DNA of 64,000 nt from Naegleria gruberi (lineage: Eukaryota), in the NCBI GenBank assembly GCA_000004985.1, contig GG738855.1. One strand, given 5' to 3'. The translations under genes and the position numbers were made by a program. The notes under the pieces are model-generated. The model searched no databases. It was not told the DNA's origin and saw only the letters and a program-made list of their open reading frames with translations. Positions 32,682 to 51,505 of the stretch are shown here, one piece after another. The number at the start of each line of letters is the position of its first letter. The first letter of the stretch is position 1.

Positions 32682-33680
32682 TTAAGTAAGATCAAGCTCA
32701 CCATCTTCATCTTCAAGAACAGAAGTACAATGAATACAGTTTTCCAATTTTTTCCTTATTGCTAGAAGGAGTTGTTTAACCCATTCATCCAATTTGGTAA
32801 CTTCTAATGTTTTCTTTACAACTCTAAGGAAGATTTTTAAATCTCTTTCCTTGAAAGCCTTATAAAGTCCAACTATAAGATCAAACTCTCTACTCTTCCC
32901 AAAATTAGCTCCTCTATCACTAAAATGTTCCAAATCCATCCAGAATAATTCCAAATCTTCTTCATTGTAATCATCATTAATTCCAGCAATCTTTGTGAGA
33001 GAAGCATAAAACATATAACGAGTTTCCAAATGTCTAATAAGAGAATTTTCACCAGTTGCTGAATTACCACTATTCCATTCAGCATTTAAAATTTCCTCCC
33101 AAACCTTACTAGATTCCTTGTATTCCTTCAATCTAACATAAATATGAGCAATTTGTTCCAGACAATTATTTGCAGTTGCATAGGCTTGTTGGAATTCAAA
33201 AAGCTCAGCAGCACTTCTATATGTTTCTATCGCAAGATGTAAAATATCCACATCCACAATTGATTCAGCACTCAACCTCTCAGCAATTTCCTTCTCCTTA
33301 CGAGCTGCTTGGGCAGTTTGACCATTTTCTGTATAGATCAAACTTGCCTTCTTTAAGGAATCAATAGCCTTATTGTAGGTATCCTTAGTTTCATCAAACA
33401 TTGTGTCTTGAAGATAGGCTTCAGAGGCTAAATTATACACGTTGGCTGCTTTGTGTTTCTCTCCCGATTTTACCAAACATTCAGCGGATTTACAATAGGC
33501 ATCACCAGCAGAAGAATACATGTTACTTTCCATATAGATTTGGGCAGCTTGCTCATAATACTTCATGGCATCCTTTGTCTTGTTACCAAAGTGAATTTTC
33601 TTACTCAATACGCTTGCAGCCTTTTTCATCAACTTATCACCTGCATCACAGGTTGTTGAGGCAAACTCTTCCAAGGACAT
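32682..33680 (-). CDS. Soluble NSF attachment protein (SNAP family; gamma-SNAP-like)
   Basis: 332 aa of TPR-like helical hairpins with the SNAP pattern: KYYEQAAQIYMESNMYSSAGDAYCKSAE, LEQIAHIYVRLKEYKESSKVWEEI and RHLETRYMFYASLTKI. Confidence 0.7.
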   Translation of the reverse strand: MSLEEFASTTCDAGDKLMKKAASVLSKKIHFGNKTKDAMKYYEQAAQIYMESNMYSSAGDAYCKSAECLVKSGEKHKAANVYNLASEAYLQDTMFDETKDTYNKAIDSLKKASLIYTENGQTAQAARKEKEIAERLSAESIVDVDILHLAIETYRSAAELFEFQQAYATANNCLEQIAHIYVRLKEYKESSKVWEEILNAEWNSGNSATGENSLIRHLETRYMFYASLTKIAGINDDYNEEDLELFWMDLEHFSDRGANFGKSREFDLIVGLYKAFKERDLKIFLRVVKKTLEVTKLDEWVKQLLLAIRKKLENCIHCTSVLEDEDGELDLT

Positions 33681-33787
33681 TTTTTTAAAATTAATAACTG
33701 ATTAAGATTGGAGGACAATCATTGTTCAATTCTTCAACTATTTGATCCAAGAATTTGATTCCTCTCACTCTGTATATTGAAAAAGAG

Positions 33788-35338
33788 TTAATGTTTAATG
33801 ACACCTTGTTTCTTAAGGTCGAGATAGGTTTGTTTGGTGTAGACATTTCCTTCAGCATCTTCAACTTCCTCCATTTCTGATTGGTCCCAACTTTGTTGTT
33901 GATCTTGATTTTGCATACTCTTCCATAATTCCACAGCATCTTTGATCTTTGTAATGTGATGGAAATGTCTAGTGTTTGGAATTCCTAGAATTTTCATACC
34001 ATTAGCATGTCTCCACTCTTGGAAGTGTTTTTCAAATTCCTTATGTCCCCAGTATGAGTGATTACCACATATTTCACAAATGTATTCATTTCCCAAGCCT
34101 TGGAATTTATAGAGCCAATATGGAATAGGTTTACCATCAGGACCAATAGGCAAGTTCAAAGGATTATTCTTCTTACTGGCATATTTACTGAGTGGATCAT
34201 TAGGATCAATTGCACTATTGGCCTTCTTTTGTTGTTCTTGTTGTTCGTCGTCATCCTCCTTGTCCATTTGCTTTTCAATTCTTTCCATTTCAGCTTGATT
34301 TTCTTCCCATGTCCTGGTTGACTTTTTCTCCACATAAATCTTAGTTTGTTGTATTACATCAGATAGCCATTCTGTTAAGAATTTGGAAATCTTGTATTCC
34401 ATTAATGCTATCGACCTTAGTTTATCTACATTGTGATTGCTCTTTCTTTTACCTCCTCTTCTCTTCTTCTTTTTACCTTGTGCTGATGAATTTTGCTCAG
34501 ATGTTGGTTGATCTTTTTCTGGTTGACTCTTTTCCATCAATTTAACCAAGAACTTCCAATGTTCAGGCAAATCACCACTAGTACACTTTGTGTCGAATTC
34601 CTCTTCCAATTTATCAACCATTTGTTTGATGCCCATAAGAGGTTGAGTTCTATTCATAAAATCAATAAAGTAATCCAAAAGACTTTCCAAATAACTCTTA
34701 TATTTTTCCTGATTTTTAAGATCTAGTGACAATTTGTCAAATTGACCTAAAGTGACAAGATATTCCACATAGTCAATAGTTTTATGTTCAACAGGTGGAG
34801 TTGCTGTGGAATTCTGTTCATTAATCAGGTCTACGAATGCGTTATAGTGAGCATTTAAATCGACATACCTTCCATATAATTCTTCGTCGGTGAACAAAAC
34901 TTTAATTTCCTGTTGAACTCGTTGCTTGACTTTTCTTTGAGCTTGTTCATCATTGGATTCAGAAGTATTTCTATTCTCAATTTTAACAGCAAATCTTCTG
35001 TGGTAATCCTTGATTTCTTCCAACTTTGAATAAAAACTGTTGATCGTGTTTGGTTGAGTTGTTTCAGTGATTTGATTTTTCATAGATTGTATTTGTGGTG
35101 TATTAGAATCATAAACACCAGTGTTACAAGCCTCGGATGTTTGTCCATAACAAGTTGTTAATAAATAGTTAGATTTTTGTTGTATTTGTTCAATATGATA
35201 ATTTATACGATGATTTTGATATACAATATGTTTTTGTGTTCTAGCTTTGTGTTTGATTTCATAAATTACAGATTTGATGGCTTGTTCGACGTCCGTGTGA
35301 GCAAGACGTGTTTGCTCAATCATCAACGATGAGGACAT
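33788..35338 (-). CDS. SF3A3: Splicing factor 3A subunit 3 (SF3a60/PRP9)
   Basis: The C-terminal U1-type C2H2 zinc finger YICEICGNHSYWGHKEFEKHFQEWRHANGMKILGIPNTRHFHHITKIKDAVELW is nearly identical in pattern to the SF3A3 C-terminus. The N-terminal region is typical of SF3a60 and includes a Lys/Arg-rich patch. Confidence 0.9.
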   Translation of the reverse strand: MSSSLMIEQTRLAHTDVEQAIKSVIYEIKHKARTQKHIVYQNHRINYHIEQIQQKSNYLLTTCYGQTSEACNTGVYDSNTPQIQSMKNQITETTQPNTINSFYSKLEEIKDYHRRFAVKIENRNTSESNDEQAQRKVKQRVQQEIKVLFTDEELYGRYVDLNAHYNAFVDLINEQNSTATPPVEHKTIDYVEYLVTLGQFDKLSLDLKNQEKYKSYLESLLDYFIDFMNRTQPLMGIKQMVDKLEEEFDTKCTSGDLPEHWKFLVKLMEKSQPEKDQPTSEQNSSAQGKKKKRRGGKRKSNHNVDKLRSIALMEYKISKFLTEWLSDVIQQTKIYVEKKSTRTWEENQAEMERIEKQMDKEDDDEQQEQQKKANSAIDPNDPLSKYASKKNNPLNLPIGPDGKPIPYWLYKFQGLGNEYICEICGNHSYWGHKEFEKHFQEWRHANGMKILGIPNTRHFHHITKIKDAVELWKSMQNQDQQQSWDQSEMEEVEDAEGNVYTKQTYLDLKKQGVIKH

Positions 35339-35512
35339 TTTTTTTTATTTTTAAATATTTTTTAAACAATTCATCTTCAACAATAGTCAAGTTGTATTGA
35401 ATTATTGTCAATGGTGTGATGATATTAGAATATAATATTCAATACTACATATTAATTTAAAAACTAATAGTTAACTTGGCATTGAAATTAGAATTTGTAA
35501 TATTTAAAAAAA

Positions 35513-36001
35513 ATGCTTCAACAATTTACTAAAATGCTCAGAGGTTCAGGCAACATGATGAGTGCTGCCAGAAAAATTCAACCAAAGAGAGGTCTTGAGG
35601 AATTTATTGATAAAACTGTTCTTGAAGGAAAACCATTAGAAACTAGTGGAAGAGCTTGGAGTATCAAGGAAATTCGTAGTAAATCCCTCTCCGATTTACA
35701 AAAATTGTGGATTGTTTTGATGAAGGAACGTAATATGCTCTTAACATGTAGATTATTAGCCAAGTCTATGGGAGGTAGAATGACACATCCAGAGCGTTTG
35801 GTGAAAGTCAGAACATCAATGGCTAGAATTAAAGAAGTTATTGCTGAAAGAGAAAGAGATGCTAAAGAAGTTGCTCTCTTAGAATTTGAAAAGAGAAAGG
35901 CTTCTAATTATTATGCTTTCCCACAAACAAACCCACTAGGTCTCCAATTATCTACCGAAGAAGCTCCTTCAGAGACTACCTCATCAACTCCTTCCCAATA
36001 A
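35513..36001 (+). CDS. Mitochondrial ribosomal protein L47 family (uL29m)
   Basis: GLEEFIDKT...GRAWSIKEIRSKSLSDLQKLWIVLMKERNMLLT matches the MRP-L47 signature. It is transcribed divergently from SF3A3 across a 174-bp spacer. Confidence 0.7.
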   Translation: MLQQFTKMLRGSGNMMSAARKIQPKRGLEEFIDKTVLEGKPLETSGRAWSIKEIRSKSLSDLQKLWIVLMKERNMLLTCRLLAKSMGGRMTHPERLVKVRTSMARIKEVIAERERDAKEVALLEFEKRKASNYYAFPQTNPLGLQLSTEEAPSETTSSTPSQ

Positions 36002-36156
36002 TTTTCCCTCCCGATAATATCAAAATAATCAAATTTCTTCATTGGTTTTAATAATAAAAATATAAAAACTCTTTCTAAAACTGAGATTGTAATTCTTTAA
36101 TAATAATTATTCATTAATTAATTGAATTTTAATAAAAGTTAACAATAATAATTGAC

Positions 36157-38820
36157 ATGAAAAAAATGCAAAACAATGATGAAACAATGCTAATTGATGA
36201 AAGTCACAATAGTGTCTTGAATAAAGAAGAATCGGACATGATCCAATTTATTCCCTTCCAAGAGGGAATTTCATTTCAATATAATAGAGTTTACTTTCCT
36301 CTTTCAATGATGAGAAAATTGAGGAGTAGAAGACCAAATAATAATAATTCAACATTATCACTGGCTGACGATACGCAAAGTGTCAAATCATCTACTTCAT
36401 CAAAAAAGTCGACACAATCAAATTCATCGAAAAAAAGCACCACTAGCACTTCATCTAAGAAGGTGTCTCTGGTGGCAAAAGGTTCAACAACATGTAAGGT
36501 TAATTATTGTCTGGATGGACCTTGTATTGTCACTTTGAATGAGATTAAAATTATTTCGAGTACTTGGGTAATTGATGATACTTTACTCTCTCCATCACAA
36601 TCAGAGGAAGATAATCGAATTTCAAAGTTGGCCAAGGCACAATCTAATGTGTTTTTATTCGATGAGTCAACTATGGAAAGTACTAGTGATTTTTTACAGA
36701 CAATGCAGGATAATATTCTGAATTGCAAGAAATTCGAAATTAAGAATGTGGAATTGTTGGACATGTGTGCAGAAAATGCATCAGAAATAATACTCAAACC
36801 AATTAATCCAAAATTCAAACCTGAAACTAATCCACAAGCTATCAGTATGAAAAATTTGAGATATCACTCTCTCTATTTGAATAATAATAGTATAATTTGG
36901 TTCTCGAATAATGAAGTTTACAAAGTGATCTCTGTTATTTCCAACTCATCAGCCAAATCCAAACCAAATATGAAACACAATATCTTCAGAATTGTTTCAG
37001 CAACAAAAATTATAGTAGAAGATTCAGGTTTTGAAAATAATCAATCAAAGGATCATAATGAGGTTGAACAGGCTCCTGAAACGAGTTTCTTCCTTGAATC
37101 TAAACCTTGTAAAGAGCTCTTATCACTTCTCAAGGTAGCAAACAGATTCTTCCATCATACCTTCCTCTCCTCAAATAATTTCTCACATGGTGCTATTACA
37201 ATCACAACCCCTTATTCAATTCTAGTTCATGGTCCTCACAATATTGGAAAAACGAGCTCAGTTAAAAACATTTCAAGATATTTGAAGAGTCCACTCGTAT
37301 CCGTGAATTGTAATACTTTGGGAGGAGGAGCTCTAGGAAATGAGCAAGCCATAACTTCCATTGTAAATAGATTGTATGAAAGTTTGGAAAGGAGATGGAA
37401 TTCTAAGAAATCAAATGACATTACACTTGTGTTATTCCTGGATGATTTGGATAAGATTCAGCAGGGTTTATTCTCTTCCCTCATTTCCATTCAAGAGGAA
37501 ATGAAAAAGGCTGAAAATATTCCTAAAATTCCAAATGTTATTGTAAATATTATCATTATTGGTTCAGCATCGAGCGATTCAGAGTTTATGAAAAAGATGG
37601 AAATGAGAGGAAAATTCCAAAGAGAAGTGAAATTTGACCTTCCAAATATTGAAGAAAGAAGACAATTCCTCGAATTATTATATTCAAAAGATTATTCCAA
37701 TGTGCATTTTAAAACTATTGCTGATACAGCCACTGGTTTTCAATTCTATGATTTAGTTAGAGTGTTCAGTTCTCTTAATGCGGATGTGGGTTTTAATAAG
37801 GACATTAATATCAATACTGAATATGTTCTGAGAAGAATTATCGAGCTGGGAATTACACCATCCATCAAGTCACTCACAGATTACAATGAGGGACAAGAAG
37901 AAACACCACTCGGAGGAGATGAATCAAGTAGTGAGAAACATTGGAACAAGATTGGTGGTCTTTCCAATCTCAAACAAAAAATCAGACAAGCTGCTGAATG
38001 GCCAATGAAATATCCAGACAGTTTCAAGAGATTAGGACTCCAACCACCAAGAGGTATTCTCCTGTATGGTATTCCTGGAACAGGTAAAACAACTCTTGTC
38101 AGAACACTTGCTCTCTCAACCAATTCTACCTTTATCTATTGTAATGTTGCTCAAGTATACTCTCCATATGTAGGAGAAGCTGAAAGAGCCATTAGAGACA
38201 TCATGTCGAAAGCAAGAATGATGAATCCTTCAGTGGTATTTTTCGATGAAATTGATGCAATCGTAGGCAAGAGAGATTTCTCTATGGGAGGAGCTGATTC
38301 TGTGAGCAGTAGAGTTTTATCAACCCTCCTCAACGAAATGGATGGCATTGAGAGTACAAAGAATTTACTAGTTGTTGCAGCCACCAATAGACCTGATATG
38401 ATTGATAGTGCCTTAATGAGACCTGGCAGATTGGAACACCTACTTCACGTACCACCACCAGATAAAGAAGCCAAGGAGTCTATATTTGAAATTCATACCA
38501 AGAATCTAGGAGAAACATTCTTAAACTCATCCAATCAACTCATTCATCGATCAGAGTTCATTAAGAATCTGGTAGAATGTGAGGAAATTTCAGGTGATAT
38601 GACTGGTGCAGAAATAGAGGCACTATGTAGAGAGGCCTGTATGGCAGCCATTCGTGATTTAGAAAGAAACAAACAGGCAATTCCTTCTAACATTATCATT
38701 TCATGGCAAAATTTCAAGGATGCAAGAAAACGAGTTCAACCCTTCCTCTCCACTGAAGAAGGTAAGAAAATGCTCGTCTTTTATGAAAAGTTTGAAACAA
38801 GTTTTGATAAAAACAGATAA
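36157..38820 (+). CDS. Type-II AAA+ ATPase with degenerate D1 and canonical D2 (PEX6/PEX1/AFG2-like)
   Basis: D2 has Walker A GILLYGIPGTGKTT, Walker B VVFFDEIDAI, sensor/arginine-finger regions (ATNRPDMIDSALMRPGRLE) and a C-terminal helical lid. D1 (LVHGPHNIGKTSSV, VLFLDDLD) is degenerate, as in PEX6. The N-terminal ~300 aa has no recognisable domain. Confidence 0.7.
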   Translation: MKKMQNNDETMLIDESHNSVLNKEESDMIQFIPFQEGISFQYNRVYFPLSMMRKLRSRRPNNNNSTLSLADDTQSVKSSTSSKKSTQSNSSKKSTTSTSSKKVSLVAKGSTTCKVNYCLDGPCIVTLNEIKIISSTWVIDDTLLSPSQSEEDNRISKLAKAQSNVFLFDESTMESTSDFLQTMQDNILNCKKFEIKNVELLDMCAENASEIILKPINPKFKPETNPQAISMKNLRYHSLYLNNNSIIWFSNNEVYKVISVISNSSAKSKPNMKHNIFRIVSATKIIVEDSGFENNQSKDHNEVEQAPETSFFLESKPCKELLSLLKVANRFFHHTFLSSNNFSHGAITITTPYSILVHGPHNIGKTSSVKNISRYLKSPLVSVNCNTLGGGALGNEQAITSIVNRLYESLERRWNSKKSNDITLVLFLDDLDKIQQGLFSSLISIQEEMKKAENIPKIPNVIVNIIIIGSASSDSEFMKKMEMRGKFQREVKFDLPNIEERRQFLELLYSKDYSNVHFKTIADTATGFQFYDLVRVFSSLNADVGFNKDININTEYVLRRIIELGITPSIKSLTDYNEGQEETPLGGDESSSEKHWNKIGGLSNLKQKIRQAAEWPMKYPDSFKRLGLQPPRGILLYGIPGTGKTTLVRTLALSTNSTFIYCNVAQVYSPYVGEAERAIRDIMSKARMMNPSVVFFDEIDAIVGKRDFSMGGADSVSSRVLSTLLNEMDGIESTKNLLVVAATNRPDMIDSALMRPGRLEHLLHVPPPDKEAKESIFEIHTKNLGETFLNSSNQLIHRSEFIKNLVECEEISGDMTGAEIEALCREACMAAIRDLERNKQAIPSNIIISWQNFKDARKRVQPFLSTEEGKKMLVFYEKFETSFDKNR

Positions 38821-38927
38821 TTTTCAATTAGTATTGCTTTTTGTAAACTGTTTTCATTATCCAAGAATAATGGCATCTTATCCTATTTAATATTTAATTA
38901 TGAATTTAAAATTATTATTATAAAAAA

Positions 38928-40500
38928 ATGAGTACACAGCCCAATCATCAGCTGCCACTCCTCCTCGACAATGATCATCATCACTCTATCAATAGTGGTG
39001 GTGGCGGAAATAGTGGTGGCAATGTGAGTATGGGTAATATTATTGGTGGTGTTGGTAATAATAATTTGGGATTTGGATCACTACAACCCTTTGAAGTACC
39101 CGATGCTTTCGGAATGGTTGAGGATGGAATTTATAGAAGCTCGGTTCCTAAAGCTGAAAAACAATTTCAATATTTAAAAACATTGAATTTAAAAACTATA
39201 TTATTTCTCTCTCAGGAAATTATATTGAAATCATTTACATCGTTTTTAGAGGAGGAGAAAATTGATTTAATAGAATTAGGATTATTGATTTCTAATAGAA
39301 CATTGAGTGGAGGATTGAAAATGTCATCCAATTTGAGATCGGATCAACCTTTATCACATTCTGCCTCTTCAAGCTCATTCGGAGGTATGTTATATCAGAT
39401 TACTTTGATTATTCTATAATATGCGAATATTACAATGATTAGATATGTCACCTCACTCTCCTAATGGATCTAGTCCTAAACCAAGCCTCTTTTCACCTTC
39501 ATCAAATTCTTCACTTTCAACTACCACAACTGTAGTCAATACTACATCGAATCAAACAAATACATCATCATCAACACCCTATCCAAGTCTTGCAAATAAT
39601 ACAGTCTCTCCAATTCCTCCTGCTTTACAAATTATTAATAATATTTCACTCTCTAATATTTCTTCTTCAAAAGGATTGGGATTTACCGATGAAATTTATA
39701 ATACTAAACATTGTACAGATGATCTCATAAAGGAAGCTCTGGAGATTTTAATGGACAAATCATATCATCCCATTATGGTAGTTTGCTCCTCTGGAATTCA
39801 TTTAACAGGAACTCTCATTGGATGTCTGAGAAAGTTACAGGACTGGTCACTGACCTCAATTTTTACTGAATATGAATGTTTTGCTGGAAATAATTCTCGC
39901 CACATTGATCAACAATTTATAGAAATGTTTGATACAGACCTTGTCACTCTACCTACAGAGTCATCAGGTAATTTACCTCAATGGTTTGTGGAGCACAAGA
40001 AAATGAAAAGAGAAGAGGAACGAGAATTTGAGGAAATGATGAAATATCTCGCAATGAGGAAGAACAAAACAATACCATTACCACCACCACCTCACCCAAC
40101 CAATGAATCCACAACTACCCACTCAACCACAACAACTGCTACAACAGGTCATCACAGAACTGGAAGTATTGTAATTTCGCACCATATTCACAGCAATGAT
40201 CATCATTTATCAGCTTTACCAACTAGTCATCATTTCCCAAGTGCAACACTTGCCCGACCTCATTCACCAAATAGACGGTTAAGCAATGGTTTGATTAACA
40301 ATATTAGGAAATCAAACTCTAATGAGAGTATTCACCTTCATCAACAACCACACACTGATGCAATCCTTTCTGAAAATACTGAATTGTCACCGTTCAAATT
40401 TACCTATCAACGATACATGATGGATAAACATTGTCCACTCATTAGTGAAAAATCCAACTATTCAACTTCAAGTATTGTAGAGCAGGATGAAGATGATTAG
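38928..40500 (+). CDS. Siw14/PFA-DSP family tyrosine phosphatase-like protein with substituted catalytic arginine (probable pseudophosphatase), two exons
   Basis: Exon 1 (38928 to about 39384) and exon 2 (about 39443-40500) are joined in frame across a 58-nt GTATGT...TTAG intron. Family blocks are present: FEVPDAFGMVEDGIYRSSVPKAEKQFQYLKTLNLKTILFLSQE and GTLIGCLRKLQDWSLTSIFTEYECFAGNNSRHIDQQFIEMFD. The P-loop reads VCSSGIHLTG, not HCxRGKHRTG. Confidence 0.75.
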
Positions 40501-40534
40501 GCGAGCTCATATGTAAAAGGATGAATAAATTAAT

Positions 40535-41779
40535 TTATTTTGTAACCTTGAACTTTTGAACCTTTTCCAACAAACTCTTAGCATTTTGGTCATTCTTAAA
40601 GTGTTCACGGACTGGGGCAAGGATAGCATTAATAGCCTTAGACAAAGCTGGCTTAAGTTCAGAAGGATGCAAGGTTTGTTCAGCAAAGTCCTTTTCAATT
40701 TCTTCATAGGTTGTGTAAGTCTTATTTCCACCGAACTTTTCGTCTTTTTCAATCAAAAGTTCACCTCTCATTGGTAAAATAATATGTTTGATATATTCAA
40801 GAGGTGGGTTCTTTTCAATATTACCTGGTTCACAGAAAGCACTCTTAACTTTCTTATTGACATCAGCTTCACTATCTTCCATGAAAATAGCAGCAAGTGG
40901 ATTAGATTTGGCCATCTTTGTTGAACCATCCAAACCTGGCAACATGTGGTGAGAGAGAATGATTGGAGAGAATCTGAACTTTGATTTAGTCTTCTTATCC
41001 TTTCTCTTCAATTCGGAATATTCACGAGCCAACATGTTGACCTTTCTTTGATCCATACCCAATTGACAGATATCAGCCTTCAAATAGAAGATATCAGCAC
41101 ATTGCATACATGGATAAAAGATTTGAGCAGCACTCAAGTCTTCGGCTTCGTTACGACCCATAATTTGTGAGCAACGTTTAATACGGGCCAAATTGTTATT
41201 ACGAGCAATATCAAGGACATTTAACCAATAAGTGTTAGGGTCCTTGTTAATAATTTCACTACTCCAAACAAATTCGACATTATTCAAATCCATACCAATA
41301 CTCTTCCATACTTCAATCATGTATTTACCAACAGTTTGAATCTTTTCCAAATCACCATCCATCTTGTTATTCATGAGAGCGAACCAATCGGCAACCAAAA
41401 AGATGAATTTACATCCAGCCTTGGTAAGCTTATTAACATTGATAGCCTTCATAACACCTTGGGCAATGTGAATACGGCCTGATGGTTCAAAACCGTCATA
41501 ACAAATAATTTGTTCCTTCTTATTCTTGATGAGAACACGGAGTTCATCTTCTTGAATACATTCTTCACCAACACTTCTAATCAAATTGAATCTTGCTTCT
41601 TGTTCTTCAGTAAGTTCAGTGACTGGACCTGAAGGTTGTTGAGAAATTGTGGTTTCCTCGAGTTGAGAGGTAACAGCTTCAACTTGTTGCTCTACGCTTT
41701 TTTGTTCTTCAGTATTGGACATTTTTTTTCTTATCAATAAAAAATACGAGTGTGACTCATCGCCACTTTTTGAGCTCAT
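40535..41779 (-). CDS. Cytoplasmic tyrosyl-tRNA synthetase (class I)
   Basis: Rossmann core CYDGFEPSGRIHIAQG (HIGH-like), the KMAKS (KMSKS) loop, and KKVKSAFCEPGNIEKNPPLEYIKHIILP...FGGNKTYTTYEEIEKDFAEQTLHPSELK, colinear with eukaryotic TyrRS. The likely true start is the Met near 41722. Confidence 0.9.
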   Translation of the reverse strand: MSSKSGDESHSYFLLIRKKMSNTEEQKSVEQQVEAVTSQLEETTISQQPSGPVTELTEEQEARFNLIRSVGEECIQEDELRVLIKNKKEQIICYDGFEPSGRIHIAQGVMKAINVNKLTKAGCKFIFLVADWFALMNNKMDGDLEKIQTVGKYMIEVWKSIGMDLNNVEFVWSSEIINKDPNTYWLNVLDIARNNNLARIKRCSQIMGRNEAEDLSAAQIFYPCMQCADIFYLKADICQLGMDQRKVNMLAREYSELKRKDKKTKSKFRFSPIILSHHMLPGLDGSTKMAKSNPLAAIFMEDSEADVNKKVKSAFCEPGNIEKNPPLEYIKHIILPMRGELLIEKDEKFGGNKTYTTYEEIEKDFAEQTLHPSELKPALSKAINAILAPVREHFKNDQNAKSLLEKVQKFKVTK

Positions 41780-42064
41780 CCGGAGAAAACAAGCGAAAAA
41801 AACTTGTAAAAGCTATCTCACGTGCAGTAGTTATTAATAATTATCGAATCGATTCAATCACATTTATTTCATGTGCAAAACCAGATTGGAGGTAATAATG
41901 CTGGCTTATTATAGTGATGAATCCAGTAATAGACAAGCGATGAGATAATTGCATTGTTGCATTTTGGTTATTTTTCTCAATCTCTATTTTTTGATATTTT
42001 TGAATAACTTTCCATTTGTGAAATAGCCGAACAATCAAGCCATTTGAAGAATTGTAATAATCCA

Positions 42065-43021
42065 TTATTTCTTTTCCTTTGCTTGATGTTTCATTATTTC
42101 ACTGTATTGGTGATTAAATATTTTTGTTAATTGACTGAGTCTTGAATTGGTTTGATCGTCAGTGGTTGTTCGTTTGGCTTTTGCAATTAATGTTAATGAA
42201 TGATACTTTTTGAGGAGAGTAAGAATGTCTTTCCTATCAGCAAATTCCTTACAAACAATCTCAAATTCAATGCTCGAAAAATCTACGGAAACGGACAAAG
42301 GATTTGATTCCATGTTTCCCGTTAATGAATCATATAAATATCCAATTAATTGAATATCCTTCTTCTCGAATAATATGTAGTACGAAAGAGTCAGATAGAA
42401 TAATCTGGCTTTCTGTGAATTATTACTCATTAATTTTCCAGCTAATTCCAATCCCTGTTTGAATCGACTTTTGTTCTCCTCCTTTAACGCCCACTCCTTT
42501 TTCAGTTCATTAAATACTTCCTCAAATAAATTATTACAAGAAATTCTATGACTCTCAGTTATTTGTTTCCATTCATCATTCCACTTTTCAATTTTAATAT
42601 TGATCGGATCTATTTTAGAGGGAGATGGTGTGATAACTTCAACATTTAAATTCACAGGTTTATCAGGGGTTTTCTCTACCTTGTTTTCTGTGATTTTCTC
42701 TTTGGGTTTTTCAGGTGTTATTGTTACTGGTATTATTTCTTCTTCATCAGGTATCGATTGTATTTCCGACATCATACTAGAAATTACTATTGGCTCCATT
42801 GTTTCAGAAGGCTTATTTGGTTTTTTCTTTTTTGAAATGGGCACTTCTGTTGAAATAGGTGCCTCTTCCTCACTATCATCATCATCGCTAAGTGATGTCC
42901 TATTATTAAAGAGGCTAACCATAGATCTTTTTCCATTTCTATTTGTACTACTATTACTGACAACTACAGATGAAGAAGCTATTGGTATCTTTTCCTCTGG
43001 TAATGCACTATCTATTTTCAA
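42065..43021 (-). CDS. Hypothetical protein; N-terminus may extend into the assembly gap
   Basis: 318-aa ORF with an acidic, Ser-rich N-half and a helical C-half. An upstream same-strand ORF runs into the N-run at 43218-43267. Confidence 0.4.
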   Translation of the reverse strand: MKIDSALPEEKIPIASSSVVVSNSSTNRNGKRSMVSLFNNRTSLSDDDDSEEEAPISTEVPISKKKKPNKPSETMEPIVISSMMSEIQSIPDEEEIIPVTITPEKPKEKITENKVEKTPDKPVNLNVEVITPSPSKIDPINIKIEKWNDEWKQITESHRISCNNLFEEVFNELKKEWALKEENKSRFKQGLELAGKLMSNNSQKARLFYLTLSYYILFEKKDIQLIGYLYDSLTGNMESNPLSVSVDFSSIEFEIVCKEFADRKDILTLLKKYHSLTLIAKAKRTTTDDQTNSRLSQLTKIFNHQYSEIMKHQAKEKK

Positions 43022-43217
43022 CTCATCGGGAATGTCATATCTTTCATTATGCTCATCAGAGATTAATGATTTTAAAGTCGATGGTGGAGTTGTTATTGTT
43101 GTTTGAAAATATTTACTCTTAAGAGTGGGATTTCGATTGAATGATGTAGATGATGAGGATGTTTGTTGTTTATCGGATTTAAGTGTTTGATCTTGTTGTT
43201 TCTTATTCTCTGGTGGT

Positions 43218-43267
43218 NNNNNNNNNNNNNNNNNNNNNNNNNNNNNNNNNNNNNNNNNNNNNNNNNN
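43218..43267. other. Assembly gap (run of N)
   Basis: 50 n characters, plus an isolated n at 43303. Confidence 0.99.
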
Positions 43268-43407
43268 CTAATCGTAGGCAACAAGTAATACAATTTTTTT
43301 GANTTGGGAGACACTATGAAATTTTGTAAGGCATGTTGTTGTGTCAGTGTTGAATTGAAAAACAATCATTCTTGTTTATCATTAGAATATTGATTCAATT
43401 AAAAAAA

Positions 43408-43638
43408 ATGACAGAAAAGAACATTGAAGCACTCAAATTGTTTGTCAAAGTTTTGAGAACGGTAAGAAAATTACCACCAGAAACTAGATCATACTATCGG
43501 AATTATGCCTATCAACATTTTGTTAATCACAAATCGGAAAATGATGAACGTGCTCACCAAATCATTGAACGTGCTAAACAGGATATTGAATGGATTGAAA
43601 GAAAATATGGAGTTTATGAATCACCATCTAATCAATAA
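43408..43638 (+). CDS. LYR-motif (Complex1_LYR) family small protein
   Basis: A small ORF of about 77 aa, MTEKNIEALKLFVKVLRTVRKLPPETRSYYRNYAYQHFVNH, has the L-x-x-L-(Y/F)-(R/K) pattern and the basic helices of LYRM proteins. Confidence 0.5.
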   Translation: MTEKNIEALKLFVKVLRTVRKLPPETRSYYRNYAYQHFVNHKSENDERAHQIIERAKQDIEWIERKYGVYESPSNQ

Positions 43639-43691
43639 TTTGTAAATTATTATTTTGTAAATATTTTGTCACAAGAACTTGAAATAAAAGC

Positions 43692-44855
43692 TTAATCATA
43701 ATAATAAGTACTCAAACGATAACGAATGAAAAATCCAATAGCACAACATGTTACTTGGAAGATAACCATAATAATGGTGAGTGTGCTCTCTTTCATTGGT
43801 CCAGTAATTTCCAAAATCAAGTTCAAAAGTGTCCAATTCTTACTACTTTCCAATTTTCCTGTAGCTTGATTGAATTTAGGAATACGATGTCTAGGACAAG
43901 GTATTATTCCGAACAGTTGTGGAGTGGATATTAAAAAGTTCAATATTTGTGGAATGAGGAAAAGCATCAAAGTCTTACTAAAGTGACCCATGATACCAGT
44001 AACAGCAAGAATCATGCCAGCAAAATAAGTATAGGTATCACCAACAAAGACTTCACTTGGATACCAATTATAGTACAATAATCCAAAGCTTACAGCAATG
44101 AATGGAATGATACAAACAATGGAGAATAAGTGTTGTTCATTTCCAGCTTCAAATTCAACAAAGTTATGTAATAAAATTGAGAGACCAATGACAATAGATT
44201 GACTAACTTCCAATCCATTAATACCAGCCAAAATATTGATAGTATTTGTACAAAAGACTGAAACTAAACACATATAAACCTTATAAAGGATACCAAGTTC
44301 CAACATCCAATAATTGTCTCCAACAGTTGTGGCAATACTTTCAAAGAATTGGAATGCTCTCAAAGGCTTTGGAATGACTACTGAAGTCAATCCAGAATAA
44401 GTTGTGAGGAGAGGAAGAGCAGCGAGAGTTGGGAGAATCAATTTGTAACGCCATTTTAACTCCAATACATCATCAGCAAATCCAAGGAAAAGCATAAAAC
44501 AAGTACAGAATAATCCAGCAATATAAAGATCATGTTGGGCCTTGTCTTGGAACATTTCTTGGATGAAACAAACACAAACAATATAAACAACTCCCGGAAC
44601 AATACCCAGTGATTCTGGTACTTTAGTTTTAGCTCCTTCTTCGCCCTTATTCAAATCCTTTCCAGCCAAGCCAGCTTTTTCATTCAAACCCTTGATAGAA
44701 GGTATCATAAATAAAGTTACAGCATATCCGATCAAACTAATAATAATAGATATTTGTATCATGTAATTACTTCTCAACACTTCGTGTGTCAAGAACATGT
44801 AAAGAAGCGGAGCAATCAATAACAAGCCTCCAATGTAATTGATCTTTGATTGCAT
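43692..44855 (-). CDS. ALG7: UDP-GlcNAc:dolichyl-phosphate GlcNAc-1-phosphotransferase (ALG7/DPAGT1)
   Basis: A polytopic membrane protein. The motif NTINILAGINGLEVSQS matches the conserved GPT N(A/T)INI(L/Y)AGINGLE(V)GQS block, and the D-D motif region FADDVLELKWRYK is present. Confidence 0.85.
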   Translation of the reverse strand: MQSKINYIGGLLLIAPLLYMFLTHEVLRSNYMIQISIIISLIGYAVTLFMIPSIKGLNEKAGLAGKDLNKGEEGAKTKVPESLGIVPGVVYIVCVCFIQEMFQDKAQHDLYIAGLFCTCFMLFLGFADDVLELKWRYKLILPTLAALPLLTTYSGLTSVVIPKPLRAFQFFESIATTVGDNYWMLELGILYKVYMCLVSVFCTNTINILAGINGLEVSQSIVIGLSILLHNFVEFEAGNEQHLFSIVCIIPFIAVSFGLLYYNWYPSEVFVGDTYTYFAGMILAVTGIMGHFSKTLMLFLIPQILNFLISTPQLFGIIPCPRHRIPKFNQATGKLESSKNWTLLNLILEITGPMKESTLTIIMVIFQVTCCAIGFFIRYRLSTYYYD

Positions 44856-45054
44856 TTTTTCTTGTTATTTTCGTGTTTTGACAACCAGATAAAAAGGTAA
44901 ATAACAAAACGTGTCCGTACAGATTTTCATTGTTTTACAGAATAGTTCTCTATTCCATTTGTTAGTTTTAATGGATCTAATAAATTTATTAATTATGAAA
45001 CTTTGATCATAATAAATTTCTTTTTTATTTCTTTTATTTTTTTTTAATAATAAA

Positions 45055-45817
45055 ATGCCAGCATTGAAGAAGCCAACAAATACGTTGCTGAAAAACACTC
45101 AAGTATCAGCTTCCTCCTCGGGAGTTAATAATAATACATCATCACTGCCAACAACACATGTTGGTGCCTCCTCTTCTTCTACCGTACCAAGAAGTGGCAC
45201 GATTTTGATGAATAATGTGCCTCAAAGTAATACTCTGGAGAATACACCAAAAAGGACTGTACAAATGTTGTCGGCTCCCCCTCAACAACAGGCTCAAACA
45301 GCTTCTCCTTCTACAACAACTACACAAGCCAAGAGAGGAAGAAAAAAGAAATCGGATACAGTCAAGAAGGAATTATTTGTCGATACAGCAACTAAACCCG
45401 AAGCACCTACAACAGAACCTGTAACATCATCAATCATTCAAAATAATAATACTACACCAACAAAATTAGTGTGCCCATCAACACCTACAAGAAAAAAGAA
45501 GAATAGACCAACATTTGCTGTAGCAAAAATCAAAAGAATAATTCAATCAGATGAGGAAATTGGTAAAATATCTGCTGTTGTTCCTATTTTAATATCTAGG
45601 GCTTTGGAACTTTTTATTCAGGATTTAGTTGTCACATCATCAAAAATTACTAAAAAGAAGAATGCTGGTACTGTGACAACAGCTCACTTGAAAGAGACAA
45701 TAGAGGCAGAGGATAGATTTGATTTTTTGAGAAACAAGGTCAAAAATATTCAATTATTATCTACATCTAACGATGCTGTAATGAGTGACGATGATGAAAG
45801 TACAGGAAAGAAAGTAA
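45055..45817 (+). CDS. Histone-fold protein (NF-YC/POLE4/DRAP1-like), 3' end lost in assembly gap
   Basis: A Ser/Thr/Gln-rich N-terminus precedes the histone fold RPTFAVAKIKRIIQSDEEIGKISAVVPILISRALELFIQDLVVTSSKITKKKNAGTVTTAHLKETIEAEDRFDFL. The ORF runs into the N-run beginning at 45818. Confidence 0.65.
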
Positions 45818-46294
45818 NNNNNNNNNNNNNNNNNNNNNNNNNNNNNNNNNNNNNNNNNNNNNNNNNNNNNNNNNNNNNNNNNNNNNNNNNNNNNNNNNNN
45901 NNNNNNNNNNNNNNNNNNNNNNNNNNNNNNNNNNNNNNNNNNNNNNNNNNNNNNNNNNNNNNNNNNNNNNNNNNNNNNNNNNNNNNNNNNNNNNNNNNNN
46001 NNNNNNNNNNNNNNNNNNNNNNNNNNNNNNNNNNNNNNNNNNNNNNNNNNNNNNNNNNNNNNNNNNNNNNNNNNNNNNNNNNNNNNNNNNNNNNNNNNNN
46101 NNNNNNNNNNNNNNNNNNNNNNNNNNNNNNNNNNNNNNNNNNNNNNNNNNNNNNNNNNNNNNNNNNNNNNNNNNNNNNNNNNNNNNNNNNNNNNNNNNNN
46201 NNNNNNNNNNNNNNNNNNNNNNNNNNNNNNNNNNNNNNNNNNNNNNNNNNNNNNNNNNNNNNNNNNNNNNNNNNNNNNNNNNNNNNNNNNNNNN
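45818..46294. other. Assembly gap (run of N)
   Basis: 477 consecutive n characters. The gap truncates the histone-fold gene on the + strand and the 3' end of the S1P gene on the - strand. Confidence 0.99.
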
Positions 46295-49200
46295 ACTTTA
46301 GAGTGAAGATGCATATCAGAGCCTGGCCCTCTCTCTGGAAGAGCACTGCTTTGTGAAATGAATAAGTGAGAAAGAGTTTTGATGTTTGCATCCTTAATAA
46401 ATTCCTCACTCATTTTGTGTTGGCTTGTGTATTGGAGAATTTGATCCAACAACCAGAAACAATTATGTGTTGGATTTCCAACAGCATCTAAACAATTAGA
46501 GTCACCAAATACTGCTATTCTACCTTTTCCAGATTTTGAAAATCCTAGTACTGGTACTTTGTGGATTGTACTGGAGGAGTCTGTTCCAAGAATTGGTTTT
46601 GAATTTTGTTTTCCACTCAAAATTTCAATACCTTGATCTTTAAGATGGAAAGAAGCAAGCATACCTTCTTCAGGGAATTTAATAATACTAGTTCCTGAGA
46701 GGAAAGAAGCCTTCTCTTTTCCAATTGTTATCTCACCTGTATAGACTCTTGTACCAAAAACAATGTTGAAAGGATCCAACAATGCATTCAGTGCTGGTAA
46801 ATTACAACCTCCAGTAATTGGAGTCCAAACAGTATAGGTATTATCATCGAAAAATTTGATATGTTTCATGATTGGAACGCTGTACCAGTCAGCAAAGACA
46901 GCAACAGAAAGACCATAAACTTGAACATCTTCTTTCAGTTTTTCTCTCTCTTTTTCTGTAAATTCTTCTTCAGAGTCTACAATCATGAGAGTAGAATATT
47001 TGGATGCATCAAAGGTTGTGAGATCTCCGGTTAGGATTTCAACATAATAACCCTTGTTTCTCAAGAAAATATACAAATCTCTAAAGTTGGTATGGATATG
47101 ATCACCATTCCAGTCCAAAATTTCATCCTTATTACCTAAATTATCTCTTGGAATGTAACCTGGTGGATATTGAATGTTATGATATTGATCCCACAATATT
47201 CTTTGCTGTCTCAAGGGTGGTTGAATTACCTTGACTTTTAATTTAAGTTCCATCTCACTAACTTGCATCTCGTTGCCATCTTTTCCAACTCCCAAAGGAG
47301 GTGACATGATTTTCATCTTGATTGTTCCTTCACAATAGCCATTGAAAAATCTTCCTCCACTATTAACAGAGATTTGTACACCCAACCATCCAGAATATGG
47401 CCACATTACCCTTGGATGAGTAAAGGTAACATCTAAAAAGTCACCATACTTTCCAGGTACAAAAACTGGTTCTCCAACAACTCTTCCAGAGGCGCTCATA
47501 GCATTAAGGACAGTAACATTGAATACAATAGGCATTGCAGTATGATAAATAGGTTGTGAACAGTATGGCCACATGTATGGGCAAGATGTAAGATCCAATT
47601 CACTAGGATAAAAAGTAGCTCTAGGTTTGGCTTTTTCCATGTAATCTTGGAGTAATTCGTAGGCCTTCTCTAGGTTTAGTTTACCTGCTCCTTGTTCGAA
47701 AATATTGGCATGATGAACTCTTTGAGCTGATTCTAAAAGTATTTGCTTGATACTGGCTGGATTAATGAGTGGCAATAAAGAATTATGAGTATTTGGATAG
47801 TCATCCATTTTAGCTCTTATTGAAATATCGTCAGAGTTTTGAGTAGAGGTATCCTTATTCTTCAGAGTACTACTGGCAAGGAGAGTAATAGCACCAGCAA
47901 TAACTGGACTTGCTACACTTGTTCCAGATAAAATAGAATGACAATATCCAACATTGTCACCAGCCTTATTCAACCCAAGTCCTCTAAGTTTGACTGACAT
48001 GGTTACAATGTCTGGTTTAACTCTTCCATATCCATTATTAAAACGTAACTCGTAAGTGGTAACACCTCTACTGCTAAACTTTGCAATATTATCATTATCG
48101 TCAATACCTCCAACACCAATCACATTTACAAGATCTGCAGGATTGTTAAGTGTTCCATAAAGAGGGCCATCATTACCAATGGCAGAAATAATAATAATAC
48201 CGTTGGCTGTGAGTTCCTTTACCTTATCTATGAATGGGATATCGAGGTAATCAGGTCCACCAATGCTCAAATTCAAGATTTGAATACCAGATTTCATAGC
48301 ATAATTGAATGCATCCAAAAACCAGGATGTATACGAAACTTGTTTGCTTGTAAATACTTTAAAGATGAAAACAGAGGCTTCAGGAGCAAGACCTCTACAT
48401 CCAGATCCCCTTTCCTTCTTCTCATTAAAAGGTTGTGTAGTGTTGGACTTTGGTGTGTAGGGTGTCAAATGCTTAGAGCCAATAACTCCAGAGATGAAAG
48501 TACCATGACCTAACTCATCATTTACAGAGTCTTCTGTTGTATAATTTATCATATCTTCAATATGAGAGAAGGATTCTTCATGTTTAGTACTGGAAAGTCC
48601 AGTATCAAAAACAGCAACTCTAATATTTTGTCCATAAATACCCTGTTCCCAAAGTTTGTGGGCATTCAATTTTTCTGAAACATCAACATAGGAATGACTT
48701 GGATGATTACATAATTTTCTCCTGTGATGGTGGTGGTCTGAATATTTATCCTCGGTTGACCATTGAGTAAATAATTTTCCAATACTATTAAGAATTGAGT
48801 GATCTTGTTCATCATCTGGAAGTGTTTCAATATCGTGATTGAGTAATTTTCTTTCATTGTTCATCATGTTGTGATATTCATGTTGACGAACAACATATCG
48901 TACAAATTGAGTCCTTGACTCTAATTCTGACTTTAAAGTAATATTTTCAAATTCAACAAGTGCAAAGTCAGTGTCAAACATTCTAGTAGCTGCATTATCC
49001 CTTTCAATTATTTTATATCCTCTATGAGTTCCTCCTAAAAGTGTGCTAATGTATTCATCATGTTTAAATGCTTTCATATATTCTTTAAACATGACAATGT
49101 ACCTCTCTCGTGATGTAGGAGTTGTATTGTTATTGTTGTTATTTGATGCAGTTGCTCCTTCCATATTTTGACCACTACTATTACTACCAATACTACTGGT

Positions 49201-49596
49201 ATTAAACTTCTTACACATCCTGTGTAAATTCTTCGATTTTACGAAAGGAATGGGTTGGAAAAATCTTTCATACATTTTCCTAACAGAGCATTGATTTGAC
49301 GTGCTACTATGAGCAGCCATTACATAAAATCCACCACTTTCAATATTGGTGTCAAACTCGTAACCTTTCAATAATTTAGAGAGGTCTGATATTATAATAT
49401 AAAGAGTTAGTATTATTATTAGTGATAACAAAATTGTTTTGAATAGTTTAGATGATTCTCGCTTCTCGTATCTATGTACATTTCCTATTATTTTCTTATT
49501 GTTTATATTAAAAATATTATTGTTATTGTTGATATTAAATTGCCTCAATCCGGAATTCCGTGATGAATGTATTTTAAAATATAAATTGTTCATCAT
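46295..49596 (-). CDS. Site-1 protease-like subtilase (MBTPS1/S1P, peptidase S8) , C-terminal end in gap
   Basis: N-terminal hydrophobic anchor or signal (LFKTILLSLIIILTLYII). The subtilase catalytic triad blocks are present: VAVFDTGL (Asp), HGTFISGVIGS (His) and GTSVASPVIAGA (Ser). A long region of about 450 aa after the catalytic domain is characteristic of S1P, unlike kexins or furins. Confidence 0.75.
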
Positions 49597-49845: not shown

Positions 49846-51505
49846 TCACACAATTTTTGGCAAATGTTCTCTTCCAACACCAATGCTTAACATGTTGCCA
49901 ATGTCTCGATTACTGGTAAGAGTTGTAATTTCTCTTACAGCTGGCCTCTTTGGAACACTGCTCTTATTCCAGAAAGTCAAAAATCCCACAGATTTGTTAC
50001 TCCCTCTGCTAATACTTGGCATTCTTGAAGAGGTGCTTCCATCCTTATTGTTGGAACCATATTTATGATCTAAAACACTTCCAAGATCTGATAGTTTGCT
50101 CTTTCTATCGTAATTACTTGTATCAAATGTTTGGGGCATTGATAATAATGATTTCTGCTTCTCCTTTTGTTTTCTTTTTTCAATGTAATTCTGTGAGTCA
50201 TTCATGTCAGTGATAAAAAAGCTCTTTGTTGAGCTAGCTTCTTCCTCTTCGTAGAAATCTTTCTCTGACAGTCTTGGAATAAGGTTTGCCACATCTTCTG
50301 TAATGATTCCTTGTTGATCCATCCATTCTGAGAATATTTTGGATCTTCTCTCTGCCTTCTCGTACATTTCTTGTGATTTTTTGGATTGCTTTTCAAGGTT
50401 AGAGACCTTCTTTTCTCTATTGGATTGCCGTTTCTTTCGTTCTTCTCTTAATTGCTTATTGACTTTCCTCTGCTCAGCAATTTGTTCTTGAGATAAGGTC
50501 TTGTTGGCATGATCCATATCTACAACCTCCTCAGTCTGTTTCTTTCTTCTCTTCTTATTTTTCTTTACATTGGATGACTTTTCCATGTCATTCTTTGAGG
50601 GGATACTTGCTTTTTCCTCTGAGCTTCCACTATACTTTTCATAGTGGTAGGAAAAATGCTGGCTGTCAATATAGGCTATCGAATCGGAAATATGGTCATT
50701 TCTTTTATCATTCTTCACCTTTTGATTTTCTGCACTGAATCCGTGGATGGCTATGAAATCATCAAATTTGATAGGGAGCTCTGCTTCTCTATTTTTCAAT
50801 CTTTCTCTTTCTTCTGGAGGAATTTTGAGATATCTTCTAAAGGTTTCATCCTCAATTGTTTTGGCTAATGCCTCTGGGTCTTGTTCCTGTAATTGGGGTG
50901 AACCATTGGAATCAGAAGACATTGAGGAAGACGCTCTCGAATCAATATCATATGTATCAGTCATCATTGGACTAAAATTATTATCAACTCTATCTAGAAC
51001 GTGTTCTTCGACAATATTTTTCAATTCAATACTGATTTGTGGATTAATTGAGGGTAGTTCAATTTTGATTCCAAGATTTGAGGCTGGAGGNNNNNNNNNN
51101 NNNNNNNNNNNNNNNNNNNNNNNNNNNNNNNNNNNNNNNNTCTTCATCCTCAATAACATCCGCTGTAATTCCATAAATTCCTCCAATAGAAGTTTCTATT
51201 CTGTTTTTAATTATATCAAAAGACTCTCGCACCTCTGGCATGAATTGTTCAGCATCCATTCCTTCTTCAATTTCATCAACCTTACTTCCAATTAGTTCCG
51301 ATGCTTGTAAATTTTCGTTAAATGTTGAACTATTCATACTAGTGGAGAAGGCCTTCTCCTCTTGAAGAATTTTCGCCTTCTCCTCCTCATCAAAATACTC
51401 ATCATCTTCATCGGCACCAACAGTGACTATGGTAGGCATCTTTGTGTTGGATTTTTTTCTATGTGGTGTAAATAATAACGTTATGGACAGTTGGTCCTTC
51501 TTCAT
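49846..51505 (-). CDS. Hypothetical acidic/Lys-rich protein interrupted by assembly gap 51091-51140
   Basis: Two same-strand ORFs flank the N-run: 51141-51505 (N-terminal part) and 49846-51090 (C-terminal part). Both have charged, coiled-coil-like composition. The reading frame across the gap is unknown. Confidence 0.4.
51091..51140. other. Assembly gap (run of N)
   Basis: 50 n characters inside a minus-strand coding region. Confidence 0.99.

Follow-up and report, generated by a model that had tools for sequence, protein, structure and literature searches.

A Naegleria gruberi protein of the PFA-DSP/OCA family without the catalytic arginine: a probable pseudophosphatase of an old eukaryotic subfamily

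Introduction

The 64,000-nucleotide stretch of Naegleria gruberi contig GG738855.1 analysed here (in the following, the window) carries at 38928-40500, on the plus strand, a gene for a protein of the family that comprises the PFA-DSPs (dual-specificity phosphatases of the atypical kind from plants and fungi) along with the yeast Oca proteins, in which leucine stands at the position of the catalytic arginine of the phosphate-binding loop (P-loop), so that the signature reads CX5L in place of CX5R. The locus raises two questions, namely, whether this loop is an artefact, the product of a recent decay or an old state of the gene, and what such a protein would do if it does not dephosphorylate inositol pyrophosphates (PP-InsPs). 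The enzymes that break down PP-InsPs, which are central messengers of phosphate and energy status, are accompanied by OCA-type pseudoenzymes, the role of which is admittedly unsettled (PMC13573052). A search for relevant literature on PFA-DSPs, the phosphatome or inositol pyrophosphates of Naegleria found none.

The answer that appears fairly probable from the combined analyses is that the gene is a member of an ancient, eukaryote-wide group of OCA/PFA-DSP proteins, named B-type in this analysis, that has been maintained by selection as a non-enzyme, probably as a subunit or regulator that binds proteins and does not act as a catalyst. With the Naegleria gene, the OCA-type proteins gain an example from the Discoba, and nothing is overturned by it. 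Through its relatives, it points to an OCA subgroup that retains the cysteine, lacks the arginine and has an uncharged loop, and that is old, widespread, strongly constrained and equipped with a C-terminal peptide of its own.

Family membership and loss of active-site residues

The region 38928-40500 consists of two open reading frames (ORFs) in AT-rich eukaryotic DNA (the window has a GC content of 34%). The two ORFs jointly encode a single PF03162 domain, and the gene is therefore spliced; the product has 504 amino acids (aa). Exon 1 encodes IYRSS, and exon 2 encodes TLIGCLRKLQDWSLTSIF as well as DQQFIEMFD. The Pfam profile Y_phosphatase2 (PF03162) matches this protein with 138.7 bits (cut-off 27; E=1.8e-40), in two stretches around an insert. 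A preliminary description of the locus, made from the DNA letters, had recognized a protein colinear with the PFA-DSPs, which is borne out, although it named Y_phosphatase3 as the Pfam family, and it is the Y_phosphatase2 profile that matches. In a phmmer search of the PDB, AtPFA-DSP1 (7mok/1xri) was matched at an E value of about 1e-27 and Siw14 (6byf) at E=2.5e-25, and the segment pimvvCssGiHltG was placed column for column opposite pvlihCkrGkHrtG of AtPFA-DSP1. It should be mentioned that the PDB search, the residue map, the neighbour-joining (NJ) tree and the scoring with masked profiles reported below were performed with a 494-aa version of the protein as query. The two products differ only inside the disordered insert, where the 494-aa version has one residue in the place of 11, which leaves the conclusions unaffected; the Pfam search was rerun on the 504-aa protein.

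The structure was modelled with AlphaFold2 (AF2) on the ortholog from N. lovaniensis, which is 52% identical to the N. gruberi protein. In this model both halves of the domain have a predicted local distance difference test (pLDDT) score above 90, a helix follows the motif LPQWF, and the remainder is disordered. A Foldseek comparison of the model with the PDB returned AtPFA-DSP1 and Siw14 as best matches (target template modelling scores of 0.77-0.89; E=3e-13 to 7MOL). Judged by the model of its ortholog, the N. gruberi protein keeps the fold of class I cysteine-based (CC1) dual-specificity phosphatases.

The degenerate P-loop, V-C-S-S-G-I-H-L-T-G, comprises residues 266-275 and is encoded at 39781-39810, inside the interval 39700-39900 to which it had been assigned, with Cys267 (TGC) at 39784-39786 and Leu273 (TTA), at the position of the catalytic Arg, at 39802-39804. 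When the protein is mapped onto AtPFA-DSP1, the residues C150, G153, H155, T157, R188 and D191 are kept and six are lost by the replacements H149V, K151S, R152S, K154I, R156L and K186N, in agreement with the preliminary description that the Cys is retained and that the catalytic Arg and the flanking basic residues are gone. Among the features that characterize an active PFA-DSP, the protein has Cys267, Gly270 and the Janus His272 together with the aligned Arg (R188) and Asp (D191), and it lacks the catalytic Arg (Leu273), the His before the Cys (Val266) and the basic pocket. The net charge summed over eight loop residues and the K186 position is +3.95 in canonical sequences (mean of 56), +3.0 in the A-type and +0.18 in the B-type proteins defined below, and 0 in N. 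gruberi.

Mutagenesis of Siw14 has shown that C214, G217 and R220 are essential, mutation of R220 abolishing the activity, and that His213, Arg216 and Lys218 also contribute to it (PMC13573052). His213, Arg216, Lys218 and Arg220 are all replaced in the N. gruberi protein, in keeping with its earlier designation as a probable pseudophosphatase. Because Arg220 of Siw14, the equivalent of R156 of AtPFA-DSP1, is essential and the cationic loop residues are gone, it is strongly predicted that the phosphatase activity has been lost.

The same residue map bears on a further suggestion of the preliminary description, that the protein is a sensor or decoy, the dead P-loop of which still binds, sequesters or reports inositol pyrophosphates. 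The protein has the fold of the PP-InsP phosphatases, the Cys and the equivalents of His155, Thr157, Arg188 and Asp191 are kept, and substrate-trapping pseudophosphatases are known in other families of protein tyrosine phosphatases (PTPs), all of which would fit such a role. However, the side chains of Lys151, Arg152, Lys154, Arg156 and Lys186, which grip the ligand of AtPFA-DSP1, 5-InsP7 (5-diphosphoinositol pentakisphosphate; PMC9038691), are replaced without exception, by Ser, Ser, Ile, Leu and Asn, respectively. Furthermore, the loop has a net charge of 0 as compared with about +4 in active enzymes, and 42 of 88 B-type relatives have Glu or Asp at the Arg position, which would repel a polyphosphate. 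It can thus be argued from the residues present that a pocket stripped in this way of its cationic residues would be unable to bind polyphosphates, and a role as PP-InsP sensor or decoy is considered very unlikely.

Tests for errors and alternative splicing

An apparent CX5L signature could be produced by a sequencing error, a mis-assembly or mis-splicing, and it speaks for such an artefact that the GenBank model of the gene is wrong elsewhere, as it is partial and has the insert spliced out. However, it would take two or more substitutions to turn the Leu273 codon TTA into any Arg codon, and therefore no single-base error restores CX5R. The loop was, moreover, seen in four independent assemblies. 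It is identical in N. lovaniensis and in two Naegleria-like contigs of the Logan collection, and it reads VCSSGVHLTG in Willaertia. Its residues are synonymously recoded in N. lovaniensis, in a Logan Naegleria contig and in Willaertia magna, the codon variants among the heterolobosean loci being CTC/TTA for Leu, TCG/TCT and AGC/AGT/TCT for Ser, and TGT/TGC for Cys.

With respect to splicing, the loop is situated in the middle of an exon of 1058 nucleotides (nt), and an enumeration of all in-frame GT-AG pairs yielded no alternative that alters or removes the P-loop. Neither the sequencing error nor the alternative splice that, according to the preliminary description, might restore an intact loop was therefore encountered. 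An artefact is contradicted by these results, and its probability is close to nil.

An old subfamily with an Arg-less loop

An exhaustive HMMER search of 1.84 billion representative sequences retrieved 2175 family members at E<=1e-3, and a census of P-loops distinguished three groups. The canonical loop is HC[NK][KR]GKHRTG. The A-type loop is MCNLGRHRTG and occurs in proteins of about 166 aa that keep CX5R and are annotated as OCA1-like. The B-type loop is [MVT]C[ST]SG[IV]H[EQL]TG and is accompanied by the tail motif FD.DLV.LP..LP.WF with a subsequent helix and, frequently, by a C-terminal peptide; the N. gruberi protein shows all three features. In the NJ tree it was placed in a clade that comprises 89 sequences and is free of CX5R-type members. 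The B-type counts given here refer to 88 sequences of this clade, one rogue member having been set aside. At the Arg position these have Glu in 36 cases, Gln in 21, Leu in 10, Asp in six and Arg in one, so that 87 of 88 are devoid of the arginine.

The NJ clade lacks bootstrap support, owing to rogue long branches, and membership was therefore tested with hidden Markov models (HMMs) in which the 10 P-loop residues were masked and the B-type profile was trained without Heterolobosea. The N. gruberi protein scored 190.9 bits with the B-type profile, as compared with 156.6 bits with the A-type and 155.2 bits with the canonical profile; in the validation of this approach, the held-out assignments were correct in 24 of 24 cases. 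B-type proteins were found in Kickxellomycotina, chytrids, basidiomycetes, the labyrinthulid Hondaea, the oomycete Peronospora, the foraminifer Nonionella and Heterolobosea. Judged by these scores and sources, the Arg-less loop is an old and fixed, that is, ancestral, state of a eukaryote-wide subfamily and not a Naegleria event; the "dead paralog" of the preliminary description thus did not originate within Naegleria.

The C-terminal peptide is a second hallmark of the group. An HMM of the peptide matches 26 of 334 family sequences, all of which have Arg-less B-type loops, and neither an A-type nor a canonical sequence is among them; in 21 of the 26 it is located at the very C-terminus. The pattern can be written approximately as [AP][YF]xx[YF][YF]x(3-5)[GA]PL[IV]Sx(3-4)[FY]xxK(K)S[LI][IV]x[DE]3-4-COOH, and the carriers include the family sequences P0001, P0003, P0102, P0104, P0105, P0120, P0126, P0201 (Peronospora) and P0203 (Nonionella), among others. 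To our knowledge, the B-type C-terminal peptide has not been described.

Selection was quantified as the ratio of nonsynonymous to synonymous substitution rates (dN/dS) between N. lovaniensis and a Logan Naegleria contig. The ratio is 0.015 in the C-terminal half of the fold (aa 235-334; 39688-39987), which extends from DEIYNTKHCTDDLIKEAL to FDTDLVTLP..LPQWF and includes the P-loop, and 0.017 in the acidic C-terminal peptide, PFKFTYQRYMMDKHCPLISEKSNYSTSSIVEQDEDD (aa 469-504; 40390-40497). It amounts to 0.20 in the insert (aa 127-234; 39306-39687) and to 0.33 in the linker ahead of the peptide (aa 362-468; 40069-40389).

These results have to be weighed against the possibility that an active Siw14-type paralog decayed recently and specifically in Naegleria, the gene being a young dead duplicate or incipient pseudogene. 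Loss of the Arg is indeed recurrent in the family, with independent CX5L or CX5V loops in groups derived from the A-type, for example, TC[KR]xG[KR]xLTG and MDRRGRHVTG. However, the loop is fixed in Naegleria species, Willaertia and five farther relatives (P0101-P0105, P0120), the Arg position being occupied by Leu or Ile throughout. In addition, the masked-loop HMM places the protein in a B-type group that is common to fungi and stramenopiles, and purifying selection is very strong. A recent decay is thus contradicted as well and has to be regarded as extremely improbable. On the available comparisons, the Arg-less loop is neither an error nor the result of recent decay. As the state is old and purifying selection is strong, the gene would therefore encode a working non-enzyme and not a decaying one.

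It should be noted that decay of the loop is recurrent across the OCA clade. The TC[KR]xG[KR]xLTG group (P0060, P0083, P0092, P0100 and P0215, from protist transcriptomes and metagenomes) has CX5L, too, and scores 181 bits with the A-type (Oca1-like) and 157 bits with the B-type profile when the loop is masked. The group classes with the A-type, and therefore the replacement of Arg by Leu arose more than once in the family. In the likewise A-type-derived loop MDRRGRHVTG (P0010/P0175), Asp replaces the nucleophilic Cys and Val the Arg, and in xC.LGRHKTG (P0007 from Amorphochlora, P0190 and P0196), also derived from the A-type, the Arg is conservatively replaced by Lys.

Possible functions of a B-type protein

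The yeast Oca proteins interact physically and share matching deletion phenotypes, and overexpression of SIW14 suppresses the deletions of oca1, oca2, oca4 and oca6 (PMC13573052; PMC8421204). It is because of these interactions, common phenotypes and the bypass by SIW14 that a role as a partner is proposed for the Naegleria protein. A B-type protein would join an Oca-type complex as a non-catalytic subunit or regulator, and such a complex would be built around a catalytically competent paralog of the PFA-DSP or Oca1 type, with an intact CX5R, by which the B-type protein might be linked to PP-InsP metabolism. The contacts would be made via the surface of the fold, the helix after LPxWF and the acidic C-terminal peptide, and not via a PP-InsP in the P-loop.

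Several observations weigh against this proposal. The clade with N. gruberi was recovered in 0 of 100 bootstrap replicates exactly and in 4 of 100 under a loose definition, so that the subfamily membership rests on the masked-HMM scores. The inactivity of all B-type proteins is itself a prediction from their sequences. The weak preference of Naumovozyma Oca4 for the B-type (91.8 bits, as compared with 85.5 bits for the A-type) does not establish one-to-one orthology with a yeast Oca protein. A tblastn search detected no active PFA-DSP paralog in the 64-kb window, and no A-type or canonical match from Naegleria was present among 208 candidates or among the best 120 of 2678 matches, which is not evidence of absence; since no competent Naegleria paralog was found, the proposed partner is hypothetical. 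Furthermore, AF2 does not dock the C-terminal peptide onto the domain (pLDDT about 53). Lastly, the Cys, Gly, His, Thr and Arg188 positions are conserved beyond the needs of a pure scaffold, and the pocket may have a residual function.

The last point leads to a different explanation, namely, that the protein has been repurposed, its neutral and hydrophobic Cys-Gly-His-Thr loop handling a non-phosphate or less charged ligand in a cryptic enzyme, or serving as an oxidation-sensitive thiol. It would be in line with this explanation that the Cys is present in 68, the Gly in 85 and the His155-equivalent in 64 of the 88 B-type sequences (Thr157 and Arg188 being found in 67 and 72, respectively), that the signature C[ST]SG[IV]H varies little, and that the region of the loop has the very low dN/dS of 0.015. 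Reversible oxidation of the active-site Cys of PFA-DSPs is mentioned in a passage of PMC13573052, and some fungal families of "pseudophosphatases" stay active despite non-canonical motifs (PMC13216928). However, the Cys is replaced in 20 of the 88 sequences (by Asp in 14, Ser in five and Gly in one), including whole basidiomycete lineages with the loop TDTSGIHE, and the function of the clade therefore does not need the thiol. In addition, the His that lowers the pKa of the Cys (H149) has been lost in almost all B-type proteins, and no candidate ligand is known. A cryptic enzyme or redox switch is therefore judged unlikely, albeit not far-fetched.

A bolder version of this explanation would extend to the group as a whole: the B-type would be a eukaryote-wide class with a Cys/His loop that is not dead at all, the neutral pocket of which binds or processes a non-phosphate ligand or acts as a redox switch, with the C-terminal peptide serving as a docking or autoinhibitory (pseudosubstrate) element. 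If this were true, the B-type would be a separate signalling module and not an accessory of PP-InsP phosphatases, and its distribution in Discoba, stramenopiles, Rhizaria and fungi would perhaps take it back to the last eukaryotic common ancestor. This version is distinctly unlikely.

The selectively maintained, non-catalytic subunit or regulator thus remains the preferred reading. Irrespective of it, the present analysis has yielded a corrected N. gruberi gene model, a definition of the B-type that does not depend on the loop, and a clade-specific C-terminal peptide, and the loop, its constraint and the peptide offer handles for interaction and mutagenesis studies.

Comparison with known systems

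The OCA clade has been described, in a review of 2026, as a sister group of the PFA-DSPs that consists of predicted pseudophosphatases of fungi, protists and bryophytes, the roles of which are called undefined (PMC13573052). It is defined by a Y_phosphatase2 fold in which critical residues of the HCxxGxHR motif have been substituted or deleted. The N. gruberi protein combines this fold with such substitutions, and the masked-loop HMM places it outside the canonical PFA-DSP clade. It is a further member of these already described pseudophosphatases.

The loops of the yeast proteins are CCGMGRHR in ScOca1, HSNKGKHR in ScOca2 and HCTNGELI in ScOca6, and the loop is deleted in ScOca4 (PMC13573052); the same yeast Oca proteins are included in a survey of the fungal pseudophosphatome (PMC13216928). 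The Pfam family and the fold, as well as substitutions in HCxxGxHR, are common to the yeast OCA pseudophosphatases and the Naegleria protein. ScOca6 resembles the latter in that the Cys is kept and a hydrophobic residue stands at the Arg position, but it retains the His that precedes the Cys. The preliminary description was thus right to draw a parallel with inactive paralogs of yeast, whereas the role as partners or regulators that it ascribed to them is itself an inference. Naumovozyma Oca4 has, like the Naegleria protein, a low-complexity insert at this site of the fold and the tail LPNWF, behind which a charged segment lies, but the length of the P-loop is not intact in Oca4. A long C-terminal extension with an acidic peptide is found in Naegleria and in none of the yeast sequences examined.

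The closest solved structures are those of the active 5-beta-phosphate PP-InsP phosphatases Siw14, AtPFA-DSP1-5 and MpPFA-DSP1 (PDB 6BYF, 7MOD-7MOM). About 45-50% of the residues are identical between the Naegleria protein and Siw14/AtPFA-DSP1 over the C-terminal half, and the motifs GCLRKLQxW and EY..FA are shared; in comparison with them, the Naegleria protein is longer by the 108 aa of the insert in its WPD-like loop and by a C-terminal extension of 170 aa. The nearest relatives outside the B-type are, by HMM score, the A-type or "Oca1-like" proteins, which are annotated as "putative tyrosine-protein phosphatase OCA1" in UniRef and JGI, and with the profile of which N. gruberi scores 34 bits below the B-type profile. 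Like the Naegleria protein, they carry the tail motif FIELFDTDLV..P..W and have lost the His that precedes the Cys, but they keep CX5R and a loop charge of +3, and they end after the tail, without the helix or the C-terminal peptide.

More distant parallels are STYX, MK-STYX and the inactive myotubularins, in which the PTP/DSP fold is likewise conserved and CX5R is disabled, and which are maintained by selection; such classical pseudophosphatases act through protein binding, often together with an active paralog (PMC13573052). However, they belong to other DSP/PTP families, and in STYX it is the Cys that has been lost, whereas the Arg is kept and phosphate is still bound; in Naegleria the Cys is kept, whereas the Arg and the positive pocket are lost.

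Gene model and protein architecture

The gene extends from the ATG to the stop codon at 38928-40500 and has a single intron. Exon 1 (38928-39384) encodes a G/N/H-rich N-terminus and the N-terminal half of the phosphatase fold, and its ORF recurs in an ENA assembly (family sequence P0028). The predicted intron comprises 58 nt in phase 1 (39385-39442; donor ggag/GTATGT, acceptor ATGATTAG/at) and sits inside the S/T/N-rich insert. It was singled out, from the DNA sequence, by enumeration of every in-frame, stop-free GT..AG pair, and in N. lovaniensis the insert is interrupted at the corresponding position by an intron of phase 1, too. An alternative intron at 39385-39472, which underlies the 494-aa product, was rejected, as it has no AG at its end. 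Exon 2 (39443-40500) encodes the rest of the insert, the C-terminal half of the fold, the helix, the linker and the C-terminal peptide.

The 504-aa product is absent from a collection of 15 billion proteins. The GenBank entry XP_002679943.1/EFC47199.1 (P0014) is a "partial" protein of 167 aa that begins at Met35 and ends at DTDL; it is identical to the 504-aa model over the shared exons, but takes the whole insert (39307-39718) for intronic sequence and lacks some 340 residues, among them the helix and the C-terminal peptide. The underlying GenBank/JGI splice (donor ttga/GTGGAG at 39307, acceptor TTGTACAG at 39718) is of the GT-AG type and in frame. It was rejected as the main isoform, as it deletes the conserved DEIYNTKHCTD and as three other species, including one with an intron-less gene, have an open reading frame through the insert, although it may be used for a minor isoform. 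XP_002679943.1 is a truncated and mis-spliced model, which the full-length model given here corrects.

In the protein, the N-terminal half of the Y_phosphatase2 fold comprises aa 55-126 (FEVPDAFGMVEDGIYRSS...LISNRTL; 39090-39305); it aligns with residues 12-72 of AtPFA-DSP1 and has pLDDT values above 90 in the ortholog. It is followed by the insert of 108 aa, which splits the phosphatase domain in two at the position of the WPD-like loop and is predicted to be disordered (pLDDT below 50). An open reading frame runs through the insert in N. lovaniensis, in the syntenic Logan Naegleria contig and in the intron-less Willaertia gene, and the insert is, by this comparison of reading frames, coding sequence. 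Low-complexity inserts of about 50-110 aa at the equivalent of the WPD loop were observed not only in N. gruberi, but also in Naumovozyma Oca4 (P0012, aa about 68-176) and in the Ustilaginomycotina sequences P0062 and P0006, and this site is a hot-spot of independent insertions in non-catalytic OCA-type members (heterolobosean, saccharomycete and basidiomycete).

Downstream of the C-terminal half of the fold lies a charged alpha-helix (aa 335-361, VEHKKMKREEEREFEEMMKYL...; 39988-40068) that is typical of the B-type subfamily. In the N. lovaniensis model, the helix is confidently predicted for residues 305-335, with pLDDT values of 84-95, and a charged segment after LPxWF is likewise present in other B-type proteins. 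The linker that connects the helix with the conserved C-terminal peptide is of low complexity, rich in P, T, H and S, fast-evolving and of a pLDDT below 50.

Neighbourhood of the gene

Runs of N, that is, assembly gaps, amount to 578 bases in the window (43218-43267, 43303, 45818-46294 and 51091-51140), and none is near the phosphatase-family gene; the gap of 477 N is inside the ORFs 45055-46409 and 45757-49596, and gene models there are unreliable. The gene neighbourhood was considered as a clue to function and set aside, as the neighbours are unrelated and the upstream genes differ in N. lovaniensis and Willaertia. The upstream neighbours are BTB-TLD and RasGEF genes in N. lovaniensis and the Logan contig, and KxDL and BTB_2 genes in Willaertia. 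In N. gruberi, the region 32682-49596 contains housekeeping genes without relation to the phosphatase-family gene, namely, those for alpha-SNAP, SF3a60, MRP-L47, an ATPase with two AAA domains (36157-38820), tyrosyl-tRNA synthetase (40535-41779, on the minus strand), a member of the GlcNAc-1-P-transferase family and a site-1-protease-like subtilase.

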